From NCBI RefSeq assembly GCF_001677475.2, contig NZ_CP015229.1: DNA of 64,000 nucleotides. One strand, given 5' to 3'. The DNA is from Escherichia coli (lineage in GTDB: Bacteria > Pseudomonadota > Gammaproteobacteria > Enterobacterales > Enterobacteriaceae). A program made the translations under genes and the position numbers. Below are positions 2,095-26,288 of this stretch, one piece after another (within the stretch, counting starts at the first letter, position 1; each line of letters begins with the position of its first letter). The notes beneath the pieces are model-generated. The model saw nothing but the letters and a program-made list of their open reading frames with translations, did not search any database and was not told where the DNA came from.

Positions 2095-2138
2095 GATCTA
2101 TTTATTTAGAGATCTGTTCTATTGTGATCTCTTATTAG
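2095..2138. repeat. oriC DNA-unwinding element: three tandem 13-mers (GATCTATTTATTT, GATCTGTTCTATT, GATCTCTTATTAG)
   Basis: Three GATCTnTTnTTTT-type 13-mers read directly at 2095-2107, 2111-2123, 2126-2138. Confidence 0.85.
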
Positions 2139-2151
2139 GATCGCACTGCCC

Positions 2152-18126: not shown

Positions 18127-19668
<1,542 letters not shown>

Positions 19669-19753
19669 CCTTAAAGAAGCGTACTTTGCAGTGCTCACAC
19701 AGATTGTCTGATAGAAAGTGAAAAGCAAGGCGTCTTGCGAAGCAGACTGATAC

Positions 19754-19829
19754 GTCCCCTTCGTCTAGAGGCCCAGGACACCGCCCTTTCACGGCGGTAA
19801 CAGGGGTTCGAATCCCCTAGGGGACGCCA
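19754..19829 (+). tRNA. gltU: tRNA-Glu (UUC) in the 16S-23S spacer
   Basis: GTCCCCTTCGTCTAGAGGCCCAGGACACCGCCCTTTCACGGCGGTAACAGGGGTTCGAATCCCCTAGGGGACGCCA, 76 nt. Confidence 0.95.
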
Positions 19830-20022
19830 CTTGCTGGTTTGTGAGTGAAAGTCACCTGCCTTAATATCTCAAAATTCATCTTCGGGTGATGTTTGAGATA
19901 TTTGCTCTTTAAAAATCTGGATCAAGCTGAAAATTGAAACACTGAACAACGAAAGTTGTTCGTGAGTCTCTCAAATTTTCGCAACACGATGATGAATCGA
20001 AAGAAACATCTTCGGGTTGTGA

Positions 20023-22925
<2,903 letters not shown>

Positions 22926-23018
22926 ACAACGCCGAAGATGTTTTGGCGGATTGAGAGAAGATTTTCAGCCTGATACAGATTAAATCAGAACGCAGAAGCG
23001 GTCTGATGAAACAGAATT

Positions 23019-23138
23019 TGCCTGGCGGCCGTAGCGCGGTGGTCCCACCTGACCCCATGCCGAACTCAGAAGTGAAACGCCGTAGCGCCGATGGTAGTGT
23101 GGGGTCTCCCCATGCGAGAGTAGGGAACTGCCAGGCAT
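23019..23138 (+). rRNA. rrfC: 5S ribosomal RNA
   Basis: TGCCTGGCGGCCGTAGCGCGGTGGTCCCACCTGACCCCATGCCGAACTCAGAAGTGAAACGCCG...CTGCCAGGCAT, 120 nt. Confidence 0.96.
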
Positions 23139-23190
23139 CAAATTAAGCAGTAAGCCGGTCATAAAACCGGTGGTTGTAAAAGAATTCGGT

Positions 23191-23267
23191 GGAGCGGTAG
23201 TTCAGTCGGTTAGAATACCTGCCTGTCACGCAGGGGGTCGCGGGTTCGAGTCCCGTCCGTTCCGCCA
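23191..23267 (+). tRNA. aspT: tRNA-Asp (GUC)
   Basis: GGAGCGGTAGTTCAGTCGGTTAGAATACCTGCCTGTCACGCAGGGGGTCGCGGGTTCGAGTCCCGTCCGTTCCGCCA, 77 nt. Confidence 0.95.
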
Positions 23268-23275
23268 CCCTAATT

Positions 23276-23351
23276 AGGGGCGTAGTTCAATTGGTAGAGC
23301 ACCGGTCTCCAAAACCGGGTGTTGGGAGTTCGAGTCTCTCCGCCCCTGCCA
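23276..23351 (+). tRNA. trpT: tRNA-Trp (CCA)
   Basis: AGGGGCGTAGTTCAATTGGTAGAGCACCGGTCTCCAAAACCGGGTGTTGGGAGTTCGAGTCTCTCCGCCCCTGCCA, 76 nt. Confidence 0.95.
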
Positions 23352-23387: not shown

Positions 23388-23445
23388 TCTGAAATAACCT
23401 CTCCGAAGTAAATCCTTCTACCGGCATCCTTGCCAGCCATTCAGA

Positions 23446-24285
23446 TTAATACACTTCATCCAGCACGTTAATTTTCAATAGATCGCGAATCAACGCATTT
23501 TTATCGCTATTTTGCAGCCATATGGCATAAAGCGGCCGTGAAAGTGTTGTGCTATCGACAACGGTATGCAGGCCGCCCTTTTTACGCGCCCAACTGACGG
23601 GTAGCCAAGTGCAACCATTAAGCGTCGCAATCTGTTGCTGTGCCAGTTCAGCAGAACTGGTTGTCAGAATGGGAACTTCGTCAGCACCGATCAAACCTGC
23701 CTCATGCTGTTGAAAATCTGGCCCCCATTCCAGTCGCAGATAGTTAAGATCTCCCTTTAGTTTGGAAGGGGCACTGGTATAAAGCGCTAAAGTGAAATAC
23801 CCGAGCAACTGACTGCTAAATTCGTCCATTTTGGGCGCTTCAGTAGTAATAAGAAGATCAAGCTGGCGTTCATGCAGCTGTTTTACCAGAGACTGCCGTT
23901 GGGCAATTCGCGCTTCGAACTGTAAGCCTGTATGGGCATCCTGATTTTTATACAAACGTCCCAGCCACTGATTAAGCATACATTCCCACAATGAGGCGCT
24001 GGCACCGATAGAAAACTCGTTATGTCGTGAGGTATGTGCCACCTCCTTACGGGCGGCCTGCCAGGTGCTCATGAGCGTTTCTGCATAAGGCAGTAGTTTT
24101 TCACCGGCAGCGGTTAAACGGATATTGTTTCTGTGGCGGGTGAAAAGGTTCACACCCAGTTGATTTTCCAGTTGTCTGATTCGAAAGCTCACTGCTGACT
24201 GGGTCAGGTAGAGCGATTCAGCCGCTCGACCAAAGTGACGCGTTCGGCTAACTTCCAGGAAAGTTTTTAACAATTCCGTATCCAC
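23446..24285 (-). CDS. hdfR: LysR-family transcriptional regulator HdfR
   Basis: 279-codon ORF (GTG start) [40 protein letters not shown], LysR HTH. Confidence 0.92.
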
Positions 24286-24352
24286 AGTGCTCTCCGCAAA
24301 ATTATTTGTCGTTATGATTTAAATGTTTTGTTTTACACTCTGTCAAGCGTAA

Positions 24353-24369
24353 CTAATACTCCGCGCCAT
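24353..24369. promoter_or_regulatory. maoS: Candidate maoS site (CTAATACTCCGCGCCAT) for MaoP-dependent Ori macrodomain organisation
   Basis: 17-mer in the hdfR-yifE divergent intergenic region matches the maoS sequence as I remember it; recalled from memory, not searched. Confidence 0.55.
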
Positions 24370-24403
24370 AACTAGCTCGGTCAAAGAATTAGGAGCGTGC
24401 AGG

Positions 24404-24742
24404 ATGGCGGAAAGCTTTACGACGACTAATCGATATTTCGACAATAAACATTATCCACGTGGATTCTCTCGTCATGGTGATTTCACCATCAAAGAGGCAC
24501 AACTGCTTGAGCGTCATGGTTATGCCTTCAATGAGTTGGATCTTGGCAAACGCGAGCCGGTTACCGAGGAAGAGAAACTCTTCGTAGCAGTATGCCGTGG
24601 CGAACGTGAGCCAGTGACAGAAGCAGAACGCGTGTGGTCCAAGTATATGACGCGTATCAAGCGTCCAAAACGTTTTCACACCCTTTCCGGCGGTAAACCG
24701 CAGGTTGAAGGTGCTGAAGACTACACCGATTCTGACGATTAA
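24404..24742 (+). CDS. maoP: Macrodomain Ori protein MaoP (YifE, UPF0438)
   Basis: 112-aa [45 protein letters not shown]; GGAG SD upstream. Confidence 0.92.
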
Positions 24743-24743
24743 T

Positions 24744-24769
24744 AAAAAGGGCGAAATGCCCTTTTTTTT
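24744..24769. terminator. Bidirectional intrinsic terminator between yifE (+) and yifB (-)
   Basis: AATAAAAA-GGGC-GAAAT-GCCC-TTTTTTTT: short GC stem flanked by an A-run and a T-run. Confidence 0.7.
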
Positions 24770-26288
24770 ATGTCAGTAGTTTTTGCAGATGGATGAGCAA
24801 ACGGTCAATGGCACGATAGCTAACTGCCTCCTGCAAATGCTGACGTGTGATAATGTCGGACTGATCAATATCAGCAATGGTTCGTGCAACTTTCAGTAAC
24901 CGCTGCCAGGCACGAATCGATAACCCCAGATGGATCAGCGTTTCTTCCAGCCACTGCGCATCTTCGCTCTCAAGCTTGCAGAATTGGCGTATTTCCGGAC
25001 TATCCAGCCAGGCATTCAGTTTATTCTGCCGCTTAAATTGGCGCTCTCTGGCGGCCATTACGCGTTGTTTAACGGTGGCGCTGCTTTCTCCCGGCACTAC
25101 CGTTTTACTCAAAATGCCGGGTGGCGGTAATGGGATCTCCAGTGAGAGATCGAAGCGGTCGAGAAAGGGACCAGAGAGTCGGTTGAGATAACGCAGCGTT
25201 TGCTCTGGTGTGCAGCGGTTATGGTTTCCCTGATAATGTCCGGTAGGGCTGGGATTCATCGCCGCAACAAGTTGGAAACGGGCTGGATAGGTTATTTTTG
25301 CTCGTGTGCGTGAAAGATGGATCTGCCCGGATTCAATCGGCTCTCGCAAGGCATCCAGTGTACGCCGTTCAAATTCAGGTAGCTCATCAAGAAAAAGCAC
25401 GCCGTTATGCGCCAGCGAAATTTCACCTGGCCCTGGAATTGCACCACCGCCCACCATCGCAGTTAACGACGCACTGTGATGAGGTGAGCGGAACGGGCGC
25501 TGCCGCCATTGTTTTTGTACTGATTCAGCATTTACCAGACTTAATATCGCTGCGCTCTCCAGTGCCTCTTCATTGCTTAAATCTGGCAACAGGCCATTAA
25601 TACGGCTGGCGAGCATTGTTTTACCTGTTCCCGGCGGCCCAATCAGTAAAAGGTTGTGCCCGCCAGCGGCGGTAATTTCCAGTCCTCGCTTTCCTTGTTC
25701 CTGACCGACAACATCACTGAGATCATGTTGTAGCGCCCGGGATACTGTATCAGTTGGTTTCGGGCGTTCGAGAACGTGCTTACCTTCCAGAAACGCACAG
25801 ACAGCCTGCAGATGATCGGCTATCAGGCATCCTTCACCGTTAATTAGCCCCACTTCATCTTCGTTATCTTTCGCGACGATAATTTTTCTACCTGCCTTAA
25901 TAGCTTCAGTTGCACTGGAAATTGCGCCGGGAACGCCACGCAGAGCGCCTGTAAGCGCCAGTTCTCCGACTAATTCATATTCATCTAACTTATTGGCTGT
26001 AAGCTGTTCTGAGGCCGCCAGCAACGCAATGGCGATAGGTAAATCATATCGTCCCCCTTCTTTTGGCAGATCGGCTGGAGCTAGGTTGATGGTGATTTTT
26101 TTCGCCGGATATTCATATCCGCTATTGATAATGGCGCTGCGCACGCGATCGCGAGCTTCTTTTACAGTTGTTTCTGGTAAGCCCACCATCGTTAAGCCGG
26201 GTAGACCTTTACTGATATGTACCTCAACAGTGATTGGGGGCGCATTTACTCCCAGGGCTGCGCGGGTATGAACAATTGACAGTGACAT
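24768..26288 (-). CDS. yifB: Mg-chelatase-like AAA+ ATPase YifB (ComM family)
   Basis: Canonical 506-aa MSLSIVHTRAALGVNAPPITVEVHISKGLPGL from ATG 26286-26288 (ORF track extends 10 codons upstream); Walker A GPPGTGKT. Confidence 0.9.
   Translation of the reverse strand: MSLSIVHTRAALGVNAPPITVEVHISKGLPGLTMVGLPETTVKEARDRVRSAIINSGYEYPAKKITINLAPADLPKEGGRYDLPIAIALLAASEQLTANKLDEYELVGELALTGALRGVPGAISSATEAIKAGRKIIVAKDNEDEVGLINGEGCLIADHLQAVCAFLEGKHVLERPKPTDTVSRALQHDLSDVVGQEQGKRGLEITAAGGHNLLLIGPPGTGKTMLASRINGLLPDLSNEEALESAAILSLVNAESVQKQWRQRPFRSPHHSASLTAMVGGGAIPGPGEISLAHNGVLFLDELPEFERRTLDALREPIESGQIHLSRTRAKITYPARFQLVAAMNPSPTGHYQGNHNRCTPEQTLRYLNRLSGPFLDRFDLSLEIPLPPPGILSKTVVPGESSATVKQRVMAARERQFKRQNKLNAWLDSPEIRQFCKLESEDAQWLEETLIHLGLSIRAWQRLLKVARTIADIDQSDIITRQHLQEAVSYRAIDRLLIHLQKLLT

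Follow-up and report, generated by a model that had tools for sequence, protein, structure and literature searches.

The matS/MatP system of the Ter macrodomain joins a site-specific element acting in cis to a small protein acting in trans, with low mobility and insulation of the region as the outcome. The element itself is a 13-bp palindrome, and MatP binds 23 matS sites over 800 kb. In parS/ParB systems the Ori region is organised by an effect that starts at a single origin-proximal site, or at a few, and spreads from there; parS is palindromic as well, and the protein that binds it, a CTP-dependent sliding clamp, has a recognisable HTH fold. A single, short, cis-acting Ori site of E. coli is also found in migS, which Yamaichi and Niki reportedly described in 2004 as a 25-bp oriC-positioning site lying ~200 kb from oriC, and for which we know of no dedicated partner protein.

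The system closest to the locus described here is maoS/MaoP of E. coli K-12 (Valens, Thiel and Boccard, 2016, PLoS Genet 12:e1006309; PMC5023128), in which maoS was described as a single site. The cis determinant was narrowed to the 118-bp intergenic region between hdfR and yifE (maoP), and then to its central 30 nt. Loss of either yifE or the intergenic region makes Ori markers more mobile in K-12, and loss of maoP permits contacts between the Ori and Right macrodomains. The intergenic region is needed on the chromosome in cis and maoP is functional from a plasmid, the bare 17-mer placed ectopically in the non-structured right region constrains an adjacent marker when MaoP is present, and after excision of DNA rings the constraint is kept solely by markers in cis with maoS (Valens et al., 2016; PMC5023128). 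Deletion of hdfR has the opposite effect, in that all three markers become more constrained. The same authors suggested tracking or loop extrusion as the means by which a single site could reach over hundreds of kilobases, reported that MaoP has no homology to characterised proteins, presumed that the yifE promoter lies inside the intergenic region, and discussed whether MaoP/maoS might in part take over the function of ParABS in organisms that have no ParABS (Valens et al., 2016; PMC5023128).

Other published observations bear on the system. A second maoS placed in the right non-structured region did not extend Ori interactions (Duigou and Boccard, 2017), the yifE(Q100TAG) mutation raises hdfR and gltB transcripts, maoP and hdfR mutants were enriched together in a Yersinia pestis Tn-seq screen, and MatP and MaoP both belong to the set of proteins that co-evolved with Dam. 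Among the papers that we consulted there was no report of direct binding of MaoP to maoS and no mechanistic follow-up on MaoP/maoS after 2017.

Here we examine a 64-kb stretch of E. coli DNA, hereafter the window, in which an initial annotation had put forward a 17-mer as a candidate maoS. We compare this site and its locus with the K-12 system, with other E. coli genomes, with further Enterobacterales and with more distant loci encoding relatives of MaoP, and we consider a predicted maoP promoter that overlaps the site.

Identity and position of the site

The plus strand of the window carries the asymmetric 17-nt sequence CTAATACTCCGCGCCAT at 24353-24369. This is its sole match in the 64 kb, even with three mismatches tolerated, and by simple arithmetic an exact 17-mer would be expected by chance about 7.5e-6 times in 2 x 64 kb. 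All 17 of its letters agree with the maoS sequence printed by Valens, Thiel and Boccard (2016; PMC5023128). Comparison with the published site, the check proposed in the initial annotation, revealed no difference in sequence and no other location, and the identification made there is borne out. Its placement in the gap between hdfR and yifE (maoP) was likewise exact, as the span 24286-24403 fits the open reading frame boundaries at both ends, and its estimate of ~22 kb from oriC agrees with the 22.2 kb that we obtain from the AT-rich 13-mer cluster at 2095-2143. The further claim, that maoS acts with MaoP, is supported in the genetic sense of a site required in cis and a protein supplied in trans.

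The published sequence, the divergent 118-bp intergenic location, an intact maoP and a single origin-proximal copy are therefore all found together in the window. The counterpart of the site in K-12 MG1655 lies at NC_000913.3 3948035-3948051, and RefSeq carries no annotation of the element in the matching region of E. coli genomes. We regard it as almost certain that the 17-mer of the window is the known maoS, working with MaoP in the organisation of the Ori region. It follows that the instance in the window adds no new element, maoS being already known.

Organisation of the locus

The features of the locus are collected in Table 1. Compared with K-12 MG1655, identity is 100% for both the intergenic region and MaoP (no amino acid differences in the latter), HdfR differs from its K-12 counterpart by two amino acids, the host strain not being K-12, and the gene neighbours trpT, hdfR, maoP, yifB and ilvL are as in K-12. 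Thus, with respect to the described system, site, intergenic region, MaoP, neighbours and distance from oriC are shared, and the two substitutions in HdfR are the difference. Full identity to K-12 in the site, the intergenic region and MaoP leads us to infer that maoS has the same function in this genome.

Table 1. Coordinates of features at and around the maoS locus in the window.
Feature	Position	Strand	Basis or remark
Divergent hdfR/maoP intergenic region, 118 bp ('IR' of Valens et al.)	24286..24403	.	ORF boundaries
maoP (yifE), trans-acting partner, 112 aa, ATG start	24404..24742	+	Pfam PF04219 (DUF413), E = 2.4e-38
hdfR, LysR-type regulator, 279 aa, GTG start	23446..24285	-	Pfam HTH_1 and LysR_substrate
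maoS, 17-nt cis-acting Ori macrodomain site	24353..24369	+	Unique exact match; published sequence
Invariant 19-nt island (maoS and AA)	24353..24371	+	Six-genus alignment; both flanks variable
Second invariant island, TCGTTA.GATT..AAT.TTTTGTTTTACA	24309..24337	.	Six-genus alignment; includes the predicted -35
Predicted maoP -35 hexamer, TTTACA	24332..24337	+	Sigma70-like scan; invariant in five families
Predicted maoP -10 hexamer, AATACT, inside maoS	24355..24360	+	Sigma70-like scan; cross-taxon conservation
Predicted GC-rich discriminator, CCGCGCC	24361..24367	+	Directly 3' of the predicted -10
maoP Shine-Dalgarno, TTAGGAG	24389..24395	+	8 nt before the ATG; nearly invariant in five families
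Intrinsic-terminator-like hairpin 3' of maoP	24744..24766	+	Sequence scan
oriC AT-rich 13-mer cluster	2095..2143	+	Exact 49-nt match; 0/100 shuffles with any match

Some observations on the surroundings may be recorded here. A complete rrn operon (by Rfam 16S, tRNA, 23S and 5S, with StyR-44 matched in its spacer) and the two tRNAs that follow it occupy 18127-23348 of the window, ending ~100 bp before hdfR. Just downstream of yifB there is a Rev39_5p_UTR Rfam match (26570-26859), at a place where orthologous loci have the ilv leader (PF08046). The YifB open reading frame at 24768-26318 on the minus strand encodes 516 aa from an upstream ATG, and the K-12 annotation (3948449-3949969) implies 506 aa; this difference is probably due to the choice of start codon by a mechanical ORF caller.

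The intergenic region is otherwise plain. We found no inverted repeat of at least 7 nt in 24270-24420 and no other repeats in the intergenic region, which also has no unusual single-strand structure (z = -0.30) and no match to an Rfam family, and the 17-mer, as read from its sequence, is not self-complementary. A palindromic operator, a cruciform and a known RNA element were each considered and rejected, as the region has no dyad, structure or RNA family. In contrast to the many palindromic matS sites bound by MatP, maoS is single and asymmetric, with its action alongside MaoP known from genetics, and no dispersed copies of the kind seen with matS and parS were found in the 64 kb or at the 80 species loci described below. 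The likeness to parS/ParB, which lies in an origin-proximal site that nucleates a spreading effect, does not extend to the protein or to the reach of the site: MaoP is modelled as a 112-aa helical protein for which no fold relative, and no DNA-binding fold relative, was detected, and the reach of maoS is hundreds of kilobases. With migS, maoS shares the property of being a single short cis-acting Ori site, and differs from it in both sequence and location, migS falling outside this window.

A predicted maoP promoter overlapping maoS

A scan for sigma70-like promoters returned one match in the intergenic region, TTTACA and AATACT separated by a 17-nt spacer, of which the second hexamer lies within maoS. 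In a single genome such a match is not significant (1 found against 0.7 expected in shuffles). However, in an alignment of six genera that represent five families neither hexamer changes and the distance between them stays at 17 nt, with a spacer sequence that varies, and invariant hexamers held at a constant distance by a spacer of varying sequence form the footprint of a classical promoter. With a start base 7-8 nt from the -10, as is usual, the likely +1 of maoP is A24368, and maoS would then extend in the predicted promoter from about -15 to +2. The Shine-Dalgarno sequence further downstream is conserved too, TAGGAG being invariant in the five Enterobacterales families and the preceding base being C in Winslowiella.

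As a sigma70 core promoter this arrangement would resemble the stringently controlled type, having AATACT, the CCGCGCC discriminator, a purine at the predicted start and TTTACA 17 nt upstream. That reading is based on the consensus, and the 17-mer differs from such a promoter in that it works ectopically without a -35 and is invariant beyond what is typical of promoters. Among experimental maps of transcription starts, no row for yifE, maoP or hdfR was present in ROSE, in Romero et al. (2014) or in the Salmonella ChIP-exo promoter map, nor in the accessible part of the Cappable-seq supplement. Genomic SELEX with sigma factors gave a nearby peak, which is uninformative for maoS because it falls inside hdfR and not in the intergenic region.

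By eye, a possible hdfR promoter can be discerned on the minus strand, with TTGACA at 24346-24341, 17 nt, and TTTAAA at 24323-24318, which the scan missed because its -10 lacks A2 and T6. The putative hdfR promoter and the predicted maoP promoter would be interleaved back-to-back, so that polymerase or a regulator on one would exclude the other. As maoS overlies the predicted core promoter of maoP, its occupancy would be coupled to the expression of maoP, and probably to that of hdfR too; the rise in hdfR mRNA in the yifE(Q100TAG) mutant fits such local regulatory coupling at maoS.

Conservation among the Enterobacterales

In complete E. coli genomes hdfR, maoP and yifB are annotated at the homologous locus in 5425 of 5426, as they are in K-12 MG1655, and in the same proportion (5425/5426) the identity of the intergenic region is 99% or more. 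Over these 5425 genomes the median number of places for the region is one, and nearly every genome has just one copy. Six extra places were seen among the E. coli genomes, one of them plasmid-borne. The surrounding 1.4 kb (23400-24800) has only 95-99% identity in 4897 E. coli genomes. In these genomes the intergenic region, although non-coding, is better conserved than the coding DNA that flanks it.

For a sample between species we took 80 MaoP-encoding loci, one genome per species, from the Enterobacteriaceae and a few Erwiniaceae. The exact 17-mer lies upstream of maoP in 79 of the 80 and the remaining species has a single substitution; in every one of the 80 loci the distance from the site to the maoP ATG is 33-38 nt, with no second copy present. 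The sole variant, CcAATACTCCGCGCCAT in Silvania confinis, has a T-to-C change at maoS position 2, just upstream of the predicted -10 hexamer. Valens et al. (2016; PMC5023128) had already aligned eight enterobacteria in their S2 Fig, and the conservation among enterobacteria is therefore a confirmation on a larger sample and not a new result.

Loci from the Enterobacteriaceae cannot resolve maoS from its surroundings, because hardly any position of the intergenic region varies in that family. More distant loci from Yersinia, Xenorhabdus, Morganella and Leminorella were added, giving an alignment of six genera from five Enterobacterales families. In these four genera the gene order hdfR/maoP/yifB/ilvL is unchanged and the intergenic region measures ~116-119 bp. 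In the alignment all 19 nt of CTAATACTCCGCGCCATAA (24353-24371), that is maoS and the two bases that follow it, are invariant. The second invariant island, at 24309-24337, is a candidate regulator site, perhaps for HdfR. The 15 nt between the two islands vary, as does the 5'-UTR after maoS. Invariance at 19 positions exceeds what a promoter needs, and would be best explained by the additional function of maoS.

DUF413 loci outside the Enterobacterales

A HMMER search yielded 513 DUF413 representatives, and we compared eight distant loci. Gallaecimonas has lost the divergent hdfR, keeps TGTTTTGTTTTAC, 18 nt and CTAATACTCCGaCCcga, and is identical to maoS over its first 11 nt. Venatoribacter keeps a divergent LysR gene together with TCGTTAcGA...TTTTGTTTTAC, 18 nt and ccATACTCCGCcC. 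At the position of maoS the two genera have CTAATACTCCGACCCGA and ACCATACTCCGCCCAAA, respectively, and in both of them the island at 24309-24337 is partly retained. Two further distant lineages have TTTAC[CT], 17 nt and GATA[CA]T, and the arrangement TTTAC[CT], 17 nt, [ACG]ATA[CA]T is found upstream of the DUF413 gene in four distant loci altogether. Endozoicomonas, Thermohahella, Ferrimonas, the Nardonella endosymbiont and the two lineages just mentioned have no maoS-like 17-mer, the nearest sequence having at least 7 mismatches. On account of these six loci, the full 17-mer was rejected as a universal partner of DUF413 proteins. We take this to mean that maoS may be composite, with a 5' half derived from an old DUF413 promoter and a 3' half, CGCGCCAT(AA), that may be specific to the Enterobacterales.

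Several features of the distant loci are noted in their own right. Upstream of the DUF413 gene at 2501, the best -10 is directly followed by CGCGCC in Ferrimonas (L090, TATAGT-CGCGCC) and in Thermohahella (L087, CATAAT-CGCGCC), and this echoes the AATACT-C-CGCGCC of maoS, although the observation was made post hoc and on few loci. A gene for an ATP-grasp protein of the RimK/glutathione-synthetase type lies directly 3' of the DUF413 gene in three distant loci, and a RimB-like gene in one (L089 2921-3796, L090 2842-3750, L091 2883-3917, L088 2841-3281). MaoP has a conserved acidic C-terminal tail, and a functional link between MaoP/DUF413 proteins and the RimK-type ATP-grasp or RimB-like neighbour is conceivable. 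In the 230-kb genome of the Sipalinus gigas endosymbiont (L092 2501-2854) a DUF413/MaoP homologue is situated between a UvrD-family helicase gene and rho, and its locus has neither hdfR nor a maoS-like sequence. Retention of DUF413 in a reduced endosymbiont that has no maoS suggests a core role of the protein that is independent of maoS.

Discussion

We propose that maoS is an asymmetric, single-copy recognition element, recognised by MaoP alone or with a partner, which would nucleate a MaoP-dependent constraint that spreads from the site in both directions. The spreading may occur by tracking or by loop extrusion, as Valens et al. (2016; PMC5023128) suggested. For the identity of the site, the alternative that the match is a chance occurrence without functional meaning has nothing in its favour and can be discarded, since the 17-mer agrees with the published sequence at 17 of 17 letters and in the published place, and has been kept in 79 of 80 species against a random expectation of ~1e-5 per window.

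Given that the 17-mer is maoS, it could be asked whether it is merely the core promoter of maoP, conserved for promoter or regulatory function and with no dedicated architectural site. The predicted -10 within the 17-mer and TTTACA 17 nt upstream of it are in keeping with this, as are the yifE promoter that Valens et al. presume to be in the intergenic region (PMC5023128) and the similar hexamers and spacing before distant DUF413 genes, where the 5' half of maoS is kept as CTAATACTCCG or ATACTCCGC and the 3' half differs. However, the K-12 17-mer constrains a neighbouring marker ectopically when it has no -35, its effect is strictly in cis, excised rings included (PMC5023128), and the 19 invariant positions include the discriminator while the spacer and the 5'-UTR vary over five families. 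We therefore consider this explanation improbable; a promoter role is likely alongside the function of maoS, and not likely as the sole explanation. A further alternative is an indirect one, in which MaoP at maoS would chiefly regulate how hdfR and maoP are transcribed, and DNA mobility would actually be set by HdfR or its regulon. Such a route would accommodate the opposite effect of the hdfR deletion on three markers (PMC5023128), the higher hdfR and gltB transcripts in yifE(Q100TAG), the co-enrichment of maoP and hdfR mutants in the Yersinia pestis Tn-seq and the interleaving, by eye, of the predicted hdfR and maoP promoters around TTGACA (minus strand, 24346-24341). Against it, a diffusible regulator cannot account for a constraint that is confined to markers in cis after ring excision, it leaves unexplained how ectopic maoS constrains the adjacent NSR-2 marker, and a plasmid with the intergenic region and yifE fails to restore constraint when the chromosomal copy is deleted (PMC5023128). 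An indirect action through HdfR thus appears very unlikely, and maoS as a site in cis for a MaoP-dependent constraint on the Ori region is the reading that we retain.

A possible history of the site can be outlined from the comparison of DUF413 loci. In this scheme maoS would not be an architectural site in its own right. It would correspond to the core of the maoP promoter that melts, roughly from -15 to +2, and its 5' half, CTAATACTCCG, would predate the Enterobacterales as part of a conserved DUF413 promoter or operator. Proteins of the MaoP family would ancestrally have been autoregulators acting on promoter DNA or on the RNA-polymerase complex, and the Enterobacterales would have co-opted this interaction, fixing CGCGCCAT(AA), to nucleate a long-range constraint on the Ori region. 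We put the scheme forward tentatively, and think it rather unlikely.

As annotation, the present result is of small value, in that it labels a published and experimentally defined element that is absent from RefSeq. The overlap with a predicted promoter and the two-part history of the 17-mer are, on sequence comparison, modest leads and not results. Together with the invariant 19-nt island, the promoter overlap and the apparently older 5' and younger 3' halves of the site may offer leads on the way in which a constraint over several hundred kilobases of the chromosome arises from a single site of 17 bp.
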